From the IMG/VR virus record IMGVR_UViG_2695420746_000012: 4,543 nucleotides of DNA. The stretch is one strand, 5' to 3'. Source of the stretch: a virus. Lineage: Duplodnaviria; Heunggongvirae; Uroviricota; Caudoviricetes. Every line of letters starts with the position of its first letter. Position 1 is the first letter of the stretch. This document shows positions 1 to 4,543 of the stretch, in pieces. The notes under the pieces were generated by a model. The model was not told where the DNA came from. It did no database searches and saw only the letters and a program-made list of their open reading frames with translations. The translations under genes were made by a program, and so were the position numbers.

Positions 1-11
1 CGCGTTATTAG

Positions 12-55
12 TTATCTTATTCTCAAATTGTGTTACGATAATCCGAGCGGATAAT
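12..55 (+). promoter_or_regulatory. Candidate telN promoter elements (uncertain)
   Basis: Two GATAAT hexamers (37-42 and 50-55) lie within a GATAATC direct repeat (37-43, 50-56). TTGTGT at 28-33 is a possible -35 for the second one with a 16-bp spacer, but that would start transcription inside the telN Shine-Dalgarno, so the true promoter may lie upstream of the window. Confidence 0.2.
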
Positions 56-68
56 CAGGAGAGGAAAG

Positions 69-1964
69 ATGAGCAAAGTAAAAATCGGTGAATTAATAAA
101 CTCACTTGTTAGCGATGTTGAGTCAATAGATAACTCTGACCGTCCTCAAGGGGAAAAAACAAAAAAAATAAAGGCTGTTGCATTAAAATTTAAAAATGCA
201 TTATTTAATGACAAGCGAAAGTTTAGGGGGAAAGGATTAGAAAAAAGAATTACAGCCAACACATTCAATGCCTATATGAGCAGGGCCAGAAAACGGTTTG
301 ATGATAAACTTCATCATAGCTTTGAAAAAAATATACATCGCCTATCTGAAAAGTATCCTTTATATAATGAGGAGCTATTGTCATGGCTTTCTCTACCTGC
401 TGCCGATATTCGCCAAAGAATGTCAGCTTTACAGACAAAATTAAAATTAATTCTCCCTTTATCAGAAGATTTATCTAATATAAGAATTGGTGATAACAAA
501 AGTCATAATAAGTTATTAAAATTATCAAATAAATATAAAGAGTGGCAATTCGCCATTTCTGATTTAACTAGCGATAACTGGAAAGATAAGCGCGATTATT
601 TATATAAATTACTACAGCAAGGATCTGCCTTACTTGAGGAGTTGAATCAGCTAAAAGTTAACCATGAGATTCTCTATCATCTTCAACTAAGCCCTGCCGA
701 ACGAGCATCTATCCAGCAACGATGGGCGGACGTTCTGCACAATAAGAAACGTAACGTGGTGGTCATTGATTACCCTAAATATATGCAAGCTATTTACGAT
801 ATTATAAATAGCCCTGCTACATTAAATAATCTAAACACTCGTTCAGGTATGGCTCCTTTGGCATTTGCACTTGCTGCATTGTCAGGAAGACGAATGATTG
901 AGATTATGTATCAAGGTACATTTACTGTTTCTGGTAAGTATACCGTTGATTTTTTAGGCCAAGCTAAAAAAAGAACTTCTGATGATATAACCAGAAAAAT
1001 ATATACATTATGCGAAGCAAAAACATTTGTTTATTTAATAAATGTACTTCGCTCATGCCCAGCAGCATCTGATTTTGATGATGTCGTTAAAGGTTATGGA
1101 GATAACGACACACGCTCTGAAAACGGACGTATTAATGCCATATTAGCAAAGGCTTTTAACCCGTGGGTTAAATCATTTTTCAAAGATGACCGCCGTGTTT
1201 ATAAAGATAGTCGTGCTATTTATGCCCGTATTGCGTATGAAATGTTTTTCCGCGTAGATCCTCGTTGGAAAAACGTAGATGAGGATGTTTTCTTTATGGA
1301 AATTTTAGGCCATGACGATGAAAACACTCAATTACACTATAAGCAATTCAAGCTGGCCAACTTCTCAAAGACATGGAGGCCAAATACTGGAAACGAAAAT
1401 ACCAGGCTGGAAGCATTGCAGCAGCTTGATGACAAAATGCCTGGATTCGCCAGAGGAGATGCCGGGGTTCGTCTGCATAACACAGTTAAGCAGCTGGTAG
1501 AGCAGGACCCCTCTATAAAAATCACGAACAGCACTCTAAGAGCATTCAAATTTAGCCCAACAATGATTAGTCGATACCTGGAATTTGCTGCTGATGCTCT
1601 GGGGCAATTTGTTGGCGAAAATGGACAATGGCAGCTGAAAATAGATACTCCAGAAATCGTTATGCCTGACGAAGAAGAGCTGGTAGCAATACCTGAACAG
1701 ACGGATGAATTATCAGAGGATGACGATCTGGATGACGACGAAATTGAGATAGAGGAAGAGGAAGAGGAAGAGAGCGTAGAAGAACAGCAACCGCCCGCGC
1801 CTTCTTCACCTGTATCTAAGCCGGTATTTAAGCCTGTGAGAAATATTGGTGATGGCTCATACGTTGTTGAGTTTCATTATAATGGCCAGAATTATGCTTG
1901 GTCCGGCAGTGCAAACAGCCCTATGTCAGCAATGCAGTTAGCATGGCTGACATATTTCGGATAA
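69..1964 (+). CDS. telN: Protelomerase (telomere resolvase) TelN, N15 family
   Basis: 631-aa ORF with Shine-Dalgarno AGGAGAGGA at 57-65 before the ATG at 69. From memory it matches phage N15 TelN along its whole length, including MSKVKIGELI at the N-terminus, SRAIYARIAYEMFFRVDPRW, and the C-terminal YAWSG motif. Tyr424 (LHYKQF), Arg275, Lys300 and His415 sit at positions I recall as TelN active-site residues. An acidic Glu/Asp-rich linker precedes the C-terminal domain, as in TelN/TelK. Confidence 0.95.
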   Translation: MSKVKIGELINSLVSDVESIDNSDRPQGEKTKKIKAVALKFKNALFNDKRKFRGKGLEKRITANTFNAYMSRARKRFDDKLHHSFEKNIHRLSEKYPLYNEELLSWLSLPAADIRQRMSALQTKLKLILPLSEDLSNIRIGDNKSHNKLLKLSNKYKEWQFAISDLTSDNWKDKRDYLYKLLQQGSALLEELNQLKVNHEILYHLQLSPAERASIQQRWADVLHNKKRNVVVIDYPKYMQAIYDIINSPATLNNLNTRSGMAPLAFALAALSGRRMIEIMYQGTFTVSGKYTVDFLGQAKKRTSDDITRKIYTLCEAKTFVYLINVLRSCPAASDFDDVVKGYGDNDTRSENGRINAILAKAFNPWVKSFFKDDRRVYKDSRAIYARIAYEMFFRVDPRWKNVDEDVFFMEILGHDDENTQLHYKQFKLANFSKTWRPNTGNENTRLEALQQLDDKMPGFARGDAGVRLHNTVKQLVEQDPSIKITNSTLRAFKFSPTMISRYLEFAADALGQFVGENGQWQLKIDTPEIVMPDEEELVAIPEQTDELSEDDDLDDDEIEIEEEEEEESVEEQQPPAPSSPVSKPVFKPVRNIGDGSYVVEFHYNGQNYAWSGSANSPMSAMQLAWLTYFG

Positions 1965-1975
1965 AGCATACGGTA

Positions 1976-2008
1976 AAGGCACCGAATTATCGGTGCCTTG
2001 TTGTGTTG
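1976..2008. terminator. Intrinsic terminator hairpin between convergent telN and the antirepressor remnant
   Basis: Perfect 10-bp inverted repeat AAGGCACCGA (1976-1985) / TCGGTGCCTT (1990-1999) with loop ATTA, followed on the + strand by the T-rich GTTGTGTTG (2000-2008). It starts 12 bp after the telN stop; on the - strand it is followed by the weaker TTTACCGTATGCTTTAT. Confidence 0.6.
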
Positions 2009-2009
2009 C

Positions 2010-2174
2010 CTACCTCGCCTGCCCCTTTTCGTCCTCATCAAACTTTCTGATGGCCGTAGAATCAATACCCGACGCCATACACACATCAGATGCAACAAAC
2101 CACGGTTCGCCGTTAATCATCACTACACGAACCTGATGCTCTTCCGGAAAGGAAAAGACTGCTAACGCGCTCAT
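2010..2174 (-). pseudogene. Truncated phage antirepressor, BRO-N/Ant N-terminal domain fragment (54 aa)
   Basis: My own translation of the - strand (below the ORF track's length cutoff): MSALAVFSFPEEHQVRVVMINGEPWFVASDVCMASGIDSTAIRKFDEDEKGQAR. It carries the BRO-N hallmark (FxF...R-hydrophobic-I-[DN]-GEPWFVA-DV...DDEKG) and has a strong Shine-Dalgarno AAGGAGG (2180-2186, - strand) 5 nt before the ATG at 2174. It stops at 2010-2012, right against the telN terminator hairpin, whereas full antirepressors are roughly 200-300 aa. Confidence 0.6.
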
Positions 2175-2404
2175 TCAGCCTCCTTATCGTGCAGCAATTG
2201 CGACGAGAGCGATGCTGAATACCCCTGTGCTTCGTGTGTTAGCTCACACGCAATTTGAAGGAGTTTCCCTGCTTCTGAGAGATAAATCGACGCCTCACAA
2301 CTGGAGATTGTCCGATGGGCTGATGATACGAGCGCATAGACCTGAGCCAGACGTTCATCCAACGATTCCAGCAGGCCAACAGTGTTCATTTTTACCTGAT
2401 TCAT
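2171..2404 (-). CDS. Hypothetical 77-aa protein, translationally coupled upstream of the antirepressor fragment (Icd-like by position only)
   Basis: ORF with Shine-Dalgarno GAGGTGG about 6 nt before the ATG at 2404. Its TGA stop overlaps the antirepressor ATG (ATGA at 2171-2174). No sequence family recognised; the placement matches icd in P1 immI / N15 immA. Confidence 0.5.
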   Translation of the reverse strand: MNQVKMNTVGLLESLDERLAQVYALVSSAHRTISSCEASIYLSEAGKLLQIACELTHEAQGYSASLSSQLLHDKEAE

Positions 2405-2565
2405 GCAGCCACCTCGCGCACCGGAATACGGGCAGACAATACCAGGACAAACCGGCTGGCGAACTGGCGACGAGCTTCCCGTTCAGATGACGCGATAGTG
2501 GAAAGATGATGGATGTGTGACTTTTTGTCTGTGCGAACGACTGCCGCAAATTTGAATTTGAACAT
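2401..2565 (-). CDS. Small leader ORF (54 aa from ATG 2565), ORFx-like, coupled to the next gene
   Basis: The ORF track starts this frame at a GTG (2613) inside an RNA hairpin; the first ATG is at 2565 with a weak AAGAG Shine-Dalgarno. Its TGA stop overlaps the ATG of the 77-aa ORF (ATGA at 2401-2404). Protein from the ATG: MFKFKFAAVVRTDKKSHIHHLSTIASSEREARRQFASRFVLVLSARIPVREVAA. Whether it is translated is uncertain. Confidence 0.3.
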   Translation of the reverse strand: MFKFKFAAVVRTDKKSHIHHLSTIASSEREARRQFASRFVLVLSARIPVREVAA

Positions 2566-2589
2566 GGTATGCACTCTTGTTTGGAAGAA

Positions 2590-2700
2590 CAGTGCTACCA
2601 CCAGAGTTCTCACGCTCTAAGGGGGTGGTAGCCCAGACGGGGGTGAGAATACCGGCCCAAACGATACCGGCCAGCCTTTCGGCTGCCCCGCCTGAGCCAC
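2590..2700 (-). ncRNA. Candidate structured regulatory RNA / leader (c4/CI/CA-like immunity RNA region); boundaries approximate
   Basis: In - strand sense: a 5-bp hairpin with GAAA tetraloop (CAGCC-GAAA-GGCTG, + coordinates 2672-2685); a 9-bp stem GCTACCACC/GGTGGTAGC (2594-2602 / 2624-2632) enclosing a 4-bp hairpin with loop CGUGAGAA; and a single-stranded UUCUCAC (2643-2649) complementary to that loop. It sits directly upstream of the ORFx-like RBS. Confidence 0.3.
2606..2615 (-). repeat. 10-nt motif GCGTGAGAAC (- sense), copy 2, in a hairpin loop (stem AGAG/CTCT, 2603-2618)
   Basis: Exact 10-mer also present at 2780-2789. Here it lies in the loop of a 4-bp hairpin nested within the 9-bp stem 2594-2632. 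Confidence 0.5.
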
Positions 2701-2730
2701 CATAATTCGGATATGCGCAGGCTTATATAC

Positions 2731-2757
2731 ACACAAAAAAACACGCTGGCGCGTGTT
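2731..2757 (-). terminator. Intrinsic terminator within the leader of the antirepressor operon
   Basis: - strand: 7-bp stem (+ coordinates 2740-2746 / 2751-2757, AACACGC/GCGTGTT), loop of 4 nt, followed by UUUUUGUGU (+ strand A-run 2733-2739). It lies between the two GCGTGAGAAC hairpins. Confidence 0.45.
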
Positions 2758-2776
2758 GTGCGTCGCTTGGGATATT

Positions 2777-2792
2777 CGGGTTCTCACGCCCG
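2777..2792 (-). repeat. 10-nt motif GCGTGAGAAC (- sense), copy 1, in a hairpin loop (stem CGGG/CCCG)
   Basis: Exact 10-mer at 2780-2789, flanked by the 4-bp inverted repeat CGGG (2777-2780) / CCCG (2789-2792). Same loop as copy 2 but a different stem sequence, i.e. compensatory pairing. Confidence 0.5.
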
Positions 2793-2812
2793 GCTGCGGG
2801 ATTTACCGCAGC
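2793..2812. promoter_or_regulatory. Operator-like palindrome GCTGCGG-N6-CCGCAGC
   Basis: 7-bp perfect inverted repeat separated by 6 bp (GATTTA), immediately downstream (- sense) of the candidate promoter. Could be a repressor operator or the 5' hairpin of the leader RNA. Confidence 0.3.
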
Positions 2813-2818
2813 GGAGTA

Positions 2819-2848
2819 ACTTTACCGTCAAAACGACGCACACGTCAA
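2819..2848 (-). promoter_or_regulatory. Candidate sigma70 promoter for the leader / antirepressor operon
   Basis: - strand -35 TTGACG (+ coordinates 2843-2848), 18-bp spacer, -10 TAAAGT (2819-2824). A second TTGACG at 2826-2831 has no good -10. Weak match, inferred mainly from position. Confidence 0.2.
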
Positions 2849-2868
2849 TAATTTGCAAAGACATTTTA

Positions 2869-2900
2869 CCCCGTGACCAGTCACGGGGACAGGTGTTTTT
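2869..2900. terminator. GC-rich hairpin with flanking A/T runs; probable terminator separating the four-gene operon from the antirepressor module
   Basis: Inverted repeat CCCCGTGA(C) / (G)TCACGGGG (2869-2888). On the + strand it is followed by ACAGGTGTTTTTAT; on the - strand it is preceded by an A-run and followed by TAAAATGTCTTTG. It lies 62 nt downstream of the - strand operon stop (2950), so it plausibly ends that operon, but the U-tract is better in + orientation. Confidence 0.4.
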
Positions 2901-2949
2901 ATAGTTTGCTTGAACGAGTGATCAGAAGTTGATCGTTAATCAAAGGCCA

Positions 2950-3237
2950 TTACGGATTAAGAGAGTGGAAATACCTAACTAACTTACCGGCATCATCACA
3001 TTTTTCTTTATCTTCTTCCTTAACATAGCCGCGACAGAAGGCTGAATAAAATTTCGCATTTTCAGAAGCAAAAGCAGCCGTCGAAAGGAGCAGTTCTTTG
3101 CATGATTCTTTTGATGCAGCATCGGGATTATTTTTACATGCAAGCTCCGCTGATGAGTTAATAACAGAAATGCTATCTTCCTGGGCATAAACCGCAGCAG
3201 AAAAGGCAAAACATAAAACCAAAATAAAACTCTTCAC
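2950..3237 (-). CDS. Small secreted protein (95 aa, predicted signal peptide, 4 Cys in mature part), unknown function
   Basis: The ORF track begins this frame at a GTG (3261) with no Shine-Dalgarno. A GTG at 3237 is preceded by a strong AGGAG (3243-3247) with a 5-nt spacer, giving MKSFILVLCFAFSAAVYA|QEDS..., a typical Sec signal peptide. The mature part is Lys/Glu-rich with four cysteines. Last gene of the operon. Confidence 0.55.
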   Translation of the reverse strand: MKSFILVLCFAFSAAVYAQEDSISVINSSAELACKNNPDAASKESCKELLLSTAAFASENAKFYSAFCRGYVKEEDKEKCDDAGKLVRYFHSLNP

Positions 3238-3257
3238 TTTATCTCCTGTAACAGTTA

Positions 3258-3659
3258 TCACAACTCAATCAACTTTTTAGCATCAGCCATACGCTTCAAC
3301 CAGTAATCAACAATCGGTTGCTCATCCACAGAATGTTTACCTGGTATAACTCGCCAGCTGTCTGCCGAAAGGCTACCGTATCTATGCGGGAAAAGGCATT
3401 TCTTTAGCTCCTGCCATGTGCTAGGAAAACCGTCTGCCAAAGTGCCAATTAACAGAAAAGGGACAAAAATCAGGGCTACAAACCATCGGGCAAGAAAGTG
3501 CTCAACAATAACCTCTTCACCGTTATAGTAATACGCATACGTATCCCATATACGAATTTTCCTTACCCTAAAAATGGCCTTATGCTGAGAACGACTTAGC
3601 TTGATGCGAATGTATCCCTTATCCAAGAGGGATTGGTGTTTGTATGATTGAACAGCCAT
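3258..3659 (-). CDS. Hypothetical membrane protein (133 aa from ATG 3659; one central TM helix)
   Basis: The track starts this frame at a GTG (3671) overlapping the upstream gene; the first ATG (3659) is 2 nt after the upstream stop and is preceded by GTGGGG. It has a basic N-terminal region (IRIKLSRSQHKAIFRVRKIRIW) and a hydrophobic segment WFVALIFVPFLLIGTLADGF. No family recognised. Confidence 0.5.
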   Translation of the reverse strand: MAVQSYKHQSLLDKGYIRIKLSRSQHKAIFRVRKIRIWDTYAYYYNGEEVIVEHFLARWFVALIFVPFLLIGTLADGFPSTWQELKKCLFPHRYGSLSADSWRVIPGKHSVDEQPIVDYWLKRMADAKKLIEL

Positions 3660-3661
3660 TT

Positions 3662-3988
3662 TTAACCCCACTCACCATCAGCAAACAAAGCGTTATACTC
3701 TGACAATGGTAGACGGTTGCCCTCGATGTAGAGATTCAGTTCATACTTCGTCTCCGGGTTTTCCTTGTCGGCTCGTTCCCAACGCTCAGCAGCCTTACAC
3801 GCCAATAATTCCACTGCTTTCAGATAATCCTCCGTACGGAACCAGCCAAAGATAAGGCCACGATCTGTTACAGCCCAGGCAACCTTTTTTTCTTCCTCCT
3901 GGATAGCCTTAATGCGTCGATCGCATTCATCCCGGCAAAACTGCAGCTGACGGTAATCAAGTTTGTCCAAAAATGCAGTAGTAGACAT
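3662..3988 (-). CDS. Hypothetical soluble protein (108 aa)
   Basis: ATG at 3988 preceded by Shine-Dalgarno GGGGAG, which lies in the last codons of the upstream gene, 4 nt after its stop. No hydrophobic segment; charged and helical-looking. No family recognised. Confidence 0.55.
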   Translation of the reverse strand: MSTTAFLDKLDYRQLQFCRDECDRRIKAIQEEEKKVAWAVTDRGLIFGWFRTEDYLKAVELLACKAAERWERADKENPETKYELNLYIEGNRLPLSEYNALFADGEWG

Positions 3989-3992
3989 ATTT

Positions 3993-4184
3993 TTACTCCC
4001 CGTTCACCGAAAAATCACGATAGAAACATTTCCACATACGATAAGTCTGCGCGAGTTGTTCACCACGAAACATCGCCTTCCTGGCCTTCATGTTTTCCTT
4101 GTGAGACTTTCGATCTATGAACCAAAACCATTGCTGGAACACACAAAGCAAGAGACACAAAGATAATATCCACTGATTACCCAT
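3993..4184 (-). CDS. Hypothetical small membrane protein (63 aa, N-terminal TM helix)
   Basis: Taking the ATG at 4184: MGNQWILSLCLLLCVFQQWFWFIDRK..., an N-terminal hydrophobic helix followed by a basic tail. The Shine-Dalgarno is weak (AGGG about 9 nt upstream). The same frame stays open upstream across the IS2 boundary, so the true 5' end is uncertain and the gene may be IS-truncated. Confidence 0.4.
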   Translation of the reverse strand: MGNQWILSLCLLLCVFQQWFWFIDRKSHKENMKARKAMFRGEQLAQTYRMWKCFYRDFSVNGE

Positions 4185-4220
4185 AGAAAGCGCCCTGCTC
4201 TTCGTAGCTGCATGGGCTAT

Positions 4221-4261
4221 TAGACTGGCCCCCTGAATCTCCAGACAACCAGTATCACTTA
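4221..4261 (+). repeat. IS2 left terminal inverted repeat (IRL), approximate extent
   Basis: Terminal approximately 41 bp of IS2 beginning TAGACTGGCCCCC; the right-hand copy lies outside the window. Confidence 0.7.
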
Positions 4262-4311: not shown

Positions 4312-4543
4312 ATGATTGATGTCTTAGGGCCGGAGAAACGCAGACGGCGTACCACACAGGAAAAGATCGCAATTGTTCAGCAGAGCTTTGAACCGGGGAT
4401 GACGGTCTCCCTCGTTGCCCGGCAACATGGTGTAGCAGCCAGCCAGTTATTTCTCTGGCGTAAGCAATACCAGGAAGGAAGTCTTACTGCTGTGGCCGCC
4501 GGAGAACAGGTTGTTCCTGCCTCTGAACTTGCTGCCGCCATGA
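4312..4543 (+). CDS. insC: IS2 OrfA (transposase regulatory protein InsC), 5' part only
   Basis: ATG at 4312; translation [77 protein letters not shown]... is the IS2 OrfA N-terminus with its helix-turn-helix. The ORF runs off the window end with no stop, which is why it is absent from the ORF track. Confidence 0.9.

Follow-up and report, generated by a model that had tools for sequence, protein, structure and literature searches.

A 54-codon open reading frame beside telN in an N15-like linear phage-plasmid of Escherichia coli is probably a deletion remnant of the auxiliary antirepressor gene antB

The short open reading frame (ORF) that lies next to telN in the 4,543-nt stretch of DNA analysed here (hereafter the window), which comes from an N15-like (Ravinvirus) linear phage-plasmid of Escherichia coli, is in our judgement a remnant of antB that no longer functions, antB being the auxiliary, third gene of an RNA-controlled anti-immunity (immA) operon, and we put the probability of this at roughly 85%. 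The remnant (the stub) would have its origin in one microhomology-mediated deletion of 738 bp between two GGG triplets, and the resulting allele appears to have arisen once and to have spread widely, partly by recombination. All parts of the immA operon are present and conserved in the window except antB (Table 1).

Table 1. Features of the window in the telN–immA region, with the positions, strand and basis of each assignment.
Feature	Position	Strand	Basis or remark
telN protelomerase	69..1964	+	Pfam TelK_N, muzzle, catalytic and stirrup domains (all four); convergent with the minus-strand operon
Hairpin with 10-bp stem, 6 G-C pairs	1976-1999	both	Terminator scan; between the convergent telN and immA operons
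antB remnant, 54-aa ORF, last gene of the operon	2010..2174	-	ORF, partial Bro-N match, alignment to full-length AntB
Deletion junction	2023..2025		CCC on the + strand = GGG codon of Gly51; 3 bp present at both ends of the missing segment
antA homologue, 77 aa, intact, antirepressor proper	2171..2404	-	tblastn and profile matches (see text)
icd-like cell-division inhibitor gene, 54 aa, intact	2401..2565	-	NCBIfam NF033153, 67 bits against a cutoff of 25
C4-type antisense RNA, RNA repressor of the operon (N15 CA RNA / P1 c4 / P4 CI class)	2621..2707	-	Rfam match (see text)
Leader-end terminator, hairpin and T-run	stem 2757-2740	-	Terminator scan
isrK-like leader RNA	2736..2812	-	Rfam RF01394, 67 bits against a gathering score of 50
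Promoter-like site TTGACG-18-TAAAGT	2819..2848	-	Directly upstream of the leader RNA; candidate operon promoter, counterpart of N15 Pa

The operon has the layout of the P1 immI and N15 immA type, with a C4-family RNA upstream of the coding genes and an icd-like gene followed by an antirepressor gene. The C4-type RNA matches Rfam RF01695 over its full length (1–87) at 75.2 bits against a gathering score of 45, and the region shows DNA similarity to the P4 cI region. The identity of the icd-like gene is also backed by annotations in relatives, and the antA homologue matches N15 gp31 and phiKO2 gp28 in tblastn as well as the anti-repressor profile phrog_10889, and has a pN/pS of ~0.07. One promoter-like site and one hairpin with a T-run are found in the places expected for an RNA-controlled promoter and leader terminator; the promoter consensus scan was at chance level (1 site found against 1.0 expected), and position is the sole argument for this site. 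The icd, antA and stub ORFs are chained by ATGA stop/start overlaps, with the icd stop overlapping the antA ATG and the stub ATG (2174–2172) overlapping the TGA of antA (2173–2171). The initial annotation of this DNA had described the RNA element and the coupled ORFs upstream of the stub as intact, and this is borne out by the presence of the C4-type RNA, the leader, icd and antA.

In the N15 immA, P1 immI and P4 immunity systems, a C4-type RNA processed from the leader transcript makes transcription terminate prematurely, which keeps icd, antA and antB off in the lysogen. We liken the window's operon to this control by a processed antisense RNA, taking the mechanism from the N15, P1 and P4 literature: as in P1 immI (c4-icd-ant1/2) and P4 CI-RNA immunity, the icd and antirepressor genes come after a C4-family RNA, with a putative leader terminator. 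Unlike in P1 immI, the antirepressors are unrelated in size, the operon of the window combining a small AntA with a BRO-type AntB, the latter deleted. We also note that the isrK match, to a Salmonella prophage sRNA family, is full-length and lies directly upstream of the C4-type RNA as the leader of an anti-immunity operon, which suggests that isrK-type RNAs are leader/terminator modules of immI/immA-type operons.

Three further observations concern the rest of the window. An IS2 element starts at position 4222 (and continues to 4543) with the left end TAGACTGGCCCCCTGAATCTCC; its InsC-like orfA begins at 4312 and matches the IS2 TnpA family at 170 bits. The element interrupts the replication gene repA 14 codons ahead of the stop codon, is absent from CP056845.1 and from phage PhiR46_1, and its junction is found in no PLSDB plasmid. 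The ORF at 2950–3261 (minus strand, 103 aa) has a hydrophobic N-terminus and is annotated in PhiR46_1 as 'Spackle exclusion protein'; its matches were confined to PHROG families of unknown function, with none in Pfam or NCBIfam. Finally, positions 1–350 match phage YDC107_1 (CP025712; locus L001, 1–349) in both orientations, and two 'places' for this sequence appear in many plasmid records, which indicates that several database records of linear elements hold inverted telomere duplications or are mis-circularised assemblies.

The stub translates as MSALAVFSFPEEHQVRVVMINGEPWFVASDVCMASGIDSTAIRKFDEDEKGQAR, and an AAGGAGG ribosome-binding site (RBS) lies 4 nt upstream of its ATG. A search with the Pfam Bro-N model (PF02498) gave a match of 26.2 bits (cutoff 25.6, E 1.2e-5), a marginal pass, in which residues 14–50 of the stub correspond to profile positions 1–41 of 96. 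Together with the RBS, this agrees with the original description of the ORF as a BRO-N N-terminus with a good RBS, a description that was to be given up if the model found nothing. The stub does not hold a complete Bro-N domain of ~96 positions, whereas full-length relatives match positions 1–96 at 62–78 bits, and the PHROG anti-repressor families, with profiles 150–480 positions long, align to it over their first ~52 positions only.

These full-length relatives occupy the same slot between antA and telN, where N15 (gp30), phiKO2 (gp27), YDC107_1 and other E. coli plasmids have a gene of 258–264 aa (264 aa for N15 AntB, 260 aa for phiKO2 gp27, and 258 aa for the AntB of the YDC107_1 type, CP025712). 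Our assignment of antA and antB follows the notes of the phiKO2 record, in which gp27 is 'similar to auxiliary anti-repressor N15 AntB', gp28 (76 aa) is 'similar to antirepressor N15 AntA' and gp29 is icd-like. Judged from these sequences and annotations, the truncated gene is antB, the auxiliary antirepressor, and antA, the antirepressor proper, is intact. An auxiliary antirepressor activity of AntB is known only from the N15 literature; PMC4488713 describes the function of AntB as not elucidated and phage PY54 as having no antB, and a PDB sequence search with full-length AntB gave no match.

The stub lies where an AntB orthologue is expected, directly downstream of antA with overlapping stop and start codons and convergent with telN. 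N15 AntB and phiKO2 gp27 are likewise the last genes of icd-antA-antB, with the ATGA overlap with antA and the same hairpin before the convergent telN, and their first 51 residues are homologous to those of the window (26 are invariant across six aligned proteins). In the alignment of full-length AntB proteins, from N15 to the E. coli types, residues 1–27 are near-identical, residues ~28–66 form a hypervariable mosaic and residues ~67–260 are almost invariant. Of these, the window retains the first block and a portion of the variable stretch, but unlike N15 AntB and phiKO2 gp27 it has lost the second half of Bro-N and the whole of the conserved C-terminal region (~190 residues), such that homology is confined to residues 1–51. 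On this comparison the stub is a remnant of antB and not a member of the AntB orthologues in working order.

As an observation in its own right, the hypervariable mosaic cassette sits inside the Bro-N domain (as seen in the alignment with loci L001, L003, L005 and L006, from window position 2092 downward). The DNA similarity of several plasmids to the window ends at 2085–2095, and the 5' endpoints of this deletion and of the two further antB deletions described below (codons 51, 35 and 28) are all in, or at the edge of, the cassette.

The junction was placed by blastn and register alignments with YDC107_1 (L001) as the reference. Window positions 1–2025 align with L001 596–2627 at 98.4% identity and positions 2023–2934 with L001 3363–4270 at 92.7% identity, leaving a segment of 738 bp (L001 2628..3365) that is missing from the window. 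The deletion removed antB codons 52–258, the stop codon, and 110 bp of the 135-bp antB–telN spacer. It follows from the position of the junction that the last residues of the stub and its stop come from this spacer, the ORF being composed of 51 native codons followed by Q-A-R and a TAG read in the old frame. The YDC107_1-type AntB is the closest full-length allele (from the junction, the DNA identity is 98% towards telN and 93% towards antA), and from this similarity YDC107_1 is likely to represent the parental type of the deletion allele. Besides having the additional 738 bp, it differs from the window at codons 21–23 and reads CAG where the window has the spacer TAG.

The stub thus derives by deletion from a longer orthologue and has a defined junction. 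The initial annotation had proposed that the ORF was cut short from a longer BRO-N gene by a deletion or by illegitimate recombination, and had suggested alignment with full-length genes as the means of finding the breakpoint. The 258–264-aa orthologues in the same slot and the two-sided alignment, with its 738-bp gap and 3-bp microhomology, uphold this proposal and place the breakpoint at 2023–2025. Its further suggestion, that an immI-like module had been newly joined to the flank of telN, fails: the operon already adjoins telN in all relatives, so nothing foreign has been joined to telN and the deletion is internal.

In antB of the YDC107_1 type, codons 50–58 contain a perfect 10-bp hairpin (L001 3334–3363, minus strand) with the sequence GGGTCTGCAT-TTA-ATGCAGACCC (as RNA, GGGUCUGCAU-UUA-AUGCAGACCC) and a z of -3.5. 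The 5' breakpoint is exactly at the foot of this hairpin, and it is here, inside the coding sequence, that the upstream of the two GGG triplets lies. The fold predicted at the 3' breakpoint is no better than that of shuffled sequence (z -0.4). From its junction the 738-bp event looks like an ordinary microhomology deletion, and any role of the in-gene hairpin in it is speculation.

We also considered the opposite direction of change, in which the short form would be ancestral, or an artefact of assembly, and the long genes of the relatives would have been produced by insertion. This is refuted by the alignments, by the occurrence of the long form with a conserved C-terminus in N15, phiKO2, and Klebsiella and Enterobacter relatives, by a domain model that is cut mid-way, and by the junction itself, which is reproduced in many independent complete assemblies. 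Nothing was found in favour of this explanation, and we give it next to no weight.

A second hairpin, which lies between the stub and telN in the window, is the telN terminator. Its folding energy is -23 to -25 kcal/mol (z -4.0 to -4.6), whichever strand is folded, and the homologous hairpin of phiKO2 is annotated as 'terminator, putative bidirectional'. The stop codon of the stub (2012–2010) had been described as abutting the stem of this terminator; it is indeed near the stem, but there is a gap of 10 nt and the two do not touch. In the same way the gene is cut near telN, but the truncation is not exactly at the terminator as had been thought, since the junction is in the spacer and 24 nt from the stem.

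Of the 17 complete E. coli genomes with this locus, 13 have the deletion configuration, always on plasmids; it also occurs in ~17 PLSDB records, compared with 9 that have the full-length gene. Phage PhiR46_1 also has the deletion allele (a literature search on this phage found nothing), and the junction is identical in all ten aligned loci and also in L023. Plasmid CP056845.1 is 99.86% identical to the window over positions 1–4221 and 100% identical over a 571-bp query. Within a large protein collection, where contig counts are a redundant sampling of clinical E. coli and not independent observations, the 90% cluster of the stub has 51 members, and at least 1,000 contigs carry the consensus stub (WP_001542490.1), 148 the variant seen in the window (Q10P, A35S, L45F) and 88 other forms. 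With a frameshifted form described below, this gives a total for the deletion junction of more than 1,400 database contigs (at least 1000+148+203+88), and the three clusters of E. coli full-length AntB are together on roughly 1,050, subject to the same redundancy.

The recombination scar postulated in the initial annotation is therefore real as a deletion scar, but it is not private to this element and is instead the majority allele in E. coli. It had also been held that related phages with an equally short ORF at this position would point to a genuine small gene. Such relatives exist, so this holds to the letter, but they share the identical junction by descent and so do not make the stub a genuine small gene.

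Between the two main haplotypes pS is 0.25 in antA, 0.06 in the stub and 0.05 in icd, and one antA allele is common to deletion plasmids and plasmids with full-length antB. The high value in antA and the low values in the stub and icd, with this sharing of an allele, indicate one young junction that has been recombined into diverged backgrounds. We note separately that 25% of the synonymous sites of antA differ between the two haplotypes associated with this one junction, compared with 5–6% in the flanking stub and icd; the divergence of antA is either a patch of localized recombination or a balanced polymorphism of long standing in this antirepressor gene.

The protein search also returned two further short derivatives of AntB in the same slot between antA and telN, on contigs of 14–94 kb. 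Delta2 (P0011; L014–L017, 3001–3186) has 61 aa and is on 89+2 contigs, and a 597-bp in-frame deletion with TTA microhomology joins residue 35 to the native last 26 residues. Delta3 (P0012; L018–L020, 3001–3264) has 87 aa and is on ~41 contigs, and here a 645-bp in-frame deletion with AA microhomology joins residue 28 to the native last 17 residues; the stop codon is lost and the frame reads through the spacer to the TAG used by the window's stub, ending in ...GQAR. Both resemble the deletion in the window (Delta1) in affecting the same locus with 2–3 bp of microhomology and in keeping the N-terminus and losing the body of the gene, but their junctions follow codon 35 and codon 28, respectively, and the reading frame is preserved into the 26 or 17 native C-terminal residues that remain. 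As read from these three junctions, E. coli elements have lost antB through no fewer than three separate deletions.

It should be noted that the search collected candidates by shared words and that the stub query returned only short proteins. Only alleles with a query-like N-terminus could thus be found, which means that the retention of the first 28 or more codons in every case is an ascertainment effect, and the search gives no basis for estimating how often deletions leave a shorter N-terminus. Our literature search, with the primary N15 papers outside its scope, found no paper describing antB truncation or its recurrent loss. The Klebsiella phages Kpn74 and Kpn_R1 were set aside as sources of further antB lesions, as their records are error-prone or unverified and telN is also split in them.

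Three independent deletions at one locus (738, 597 and 645 bp), each with a different junction, would fit an adaptive loss of antB. AntB would then be costly, through leaky toxicity, destabilised lysogeny or recognition by host defences, and deletions would be selected repeatedly and sweep, with the stub remaining because deletions reaching further upstream would damage antA. The greater number of deleted than full-length alleles in E. coli fits with this, as does the occurrence of the Delta1 junction with two diverged antA haplotypes, and the C-terminal part of AntB is very strongly conserved where it is present, so this is not simply a drifting gene. However, the allele counts are confounded by clonal sampling, full-length alleles are still common (~1,000 contigs), and three events among thousands of plasmids could be produced by a neutral deletion bias, with the ascertainment of alleles that keep a query-like N-terminus acting as an additional source of bias. 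We regard adaptive loss as possible but somewhat doubtful, and it competes with only the neutral-decay part of our explanation.

A more specific proposition, that antB is under recurrent selected loss in which the three deletions each take away the conserved body of AntB but leave antA unharmed, and intact antB is now outnumbered by its deleted forms, seems to us unlikely. Were it true, it would imply a cost of AntB in the plasmid-prophage state, for example by destabilising lysogeny or by being sensed by host defences, and the elements would have been tuned toward a quieter, more plasmid-like life. In a weaker variant of this idea, the retained and still-translated 5' stub might be needed in cis for the proper expression of antA.

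The stub itself tolerates further disabling mutations, as a pseudogene would. A 4-bp deletion (window 2127–2130) that changes the product to MSALAVFSFQEEHQV-stop, with the stop at codon 16, is found on at least 203 contigs (244 index blocks), Shigella sonnei included, and was seen in L023 (1501–1611) and in CP088746 (L013). We had considered that the deletion in CP088746 might be a sequencing error, but its presence on so many contigs identifies it as a real and common variant. By contrast, truncated antA variants are found on no more than 3 contigs of more than 2,500. A 51-aa nonsense variant of the stub also occurs in its cluster, and frameshifted forms of 34 and 66 aa are among the search matches. 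The persistence of the 4-bp frameshift implies that the stub peptide is dispensable. The statement in PMC2847241 that N15 vectors without genes 30–32 replicate normally is consistent with dispensability for plasmid maintenance.

Substitutions were few. Since its split from the commonest form, the window lineage has accumulated three nonsynonymous and no synonymous changes in the stub, compared with three nonsynonymous and 14 synonymous differences in antA between haplotypes; three of three nonsynonymous changes would be expected ~1% of the time under an antA-like constraint by our calculation, which is based on small numbers. Between the two main haplotypes the stub has two synonymous and no nonsynonymous differences, and its variable sites among 10 loci (four nonsynonymous and three synonymous) are too few for dN/dS. 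The number of distinct protein variants, 51 over 54 aa for the stub and 83 over 77 aa for antA, is similar per residue, and as a proxy for constraint it does not separate the two. Relaxed constraint on the stub is thus not demonstrated statistically.

Most stub copies keep the start codon, RBS and reading frame, and PGAP annotates the ORF as a normal protein. The retention of the RBS, the ATGA coupling and an open frame in most of the more than 1,400 contigs might be taken to mean that the 54-aa ORF is a genuine small protein under selection, acting as a dominant-negative fragment, a decoy, or a peptide that tunes antA expression or termination at the hairpin, and a ribosome that terminates at the stub's stop codon, 10 nt away from the hairpin, might affect how the hairpin forms. 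We find this very unlikely, as the ORF was born of a deletion and its last residues are encoded by the spacer, only 41 of the 96 Bro-N profile positions are represented, and the frameshift variant persists on at least 203 contigs; moreover, the other deletion alleles have unrelated C-termini and the changes in the window lineage are all nonsynonymous. Taken together, the evidence argues against a function of the stub, and from its pattern of lesions the stub is a decaying gene remnant.

In our preferred explanation, that of a non-functional antB remnant, translation after the deletion would run three codons into the spacer and stop at the TAG located 10 nt before the telN/bidirectional hairpin. 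Since the stub has kept its RBS and ATGA overlap downstream of an intact promoter, leader, C4-type RNA, icd and antA, the 54-aa peptide is probably still made by translation coupled with that of antA when the operon is derepressed. Since less than half of the Bro-N domain is left and the conserved C-terminal 190 residues are entirely missing, the peptide is most likely inactive. Relief of the RNA block allows AntA to counteract the CB repressor (Ravin et al. 1999, as cited in PMC4488713), and in the window anti-immunity would then rest on AntA alone, with the stub as a translated but inert tail of the operon. The wide spread of the allele may have come about because antB is dispensable or costly.

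The stub matters little in itself, being what a deletion left of an already known accessory gene in an already known operon. It does require a correction to annotation, as RefSeq WP_001542490.1 is listed as an ordinary 'BRO-N domain-containing protein' but is really a truncated antB. The wider pattern is that most of the E. coli N15-like elements sampled lack the auxiliary antirepressor but have kept antA, icd and the C4 RNA intact and conserved. The antB+ elements and those with Delta1, Delta2 or Delta3 constitute natural, isogenic-like material for investigating the role of AntB, which would be useful to those working on telomere phages and phage-plasmids.
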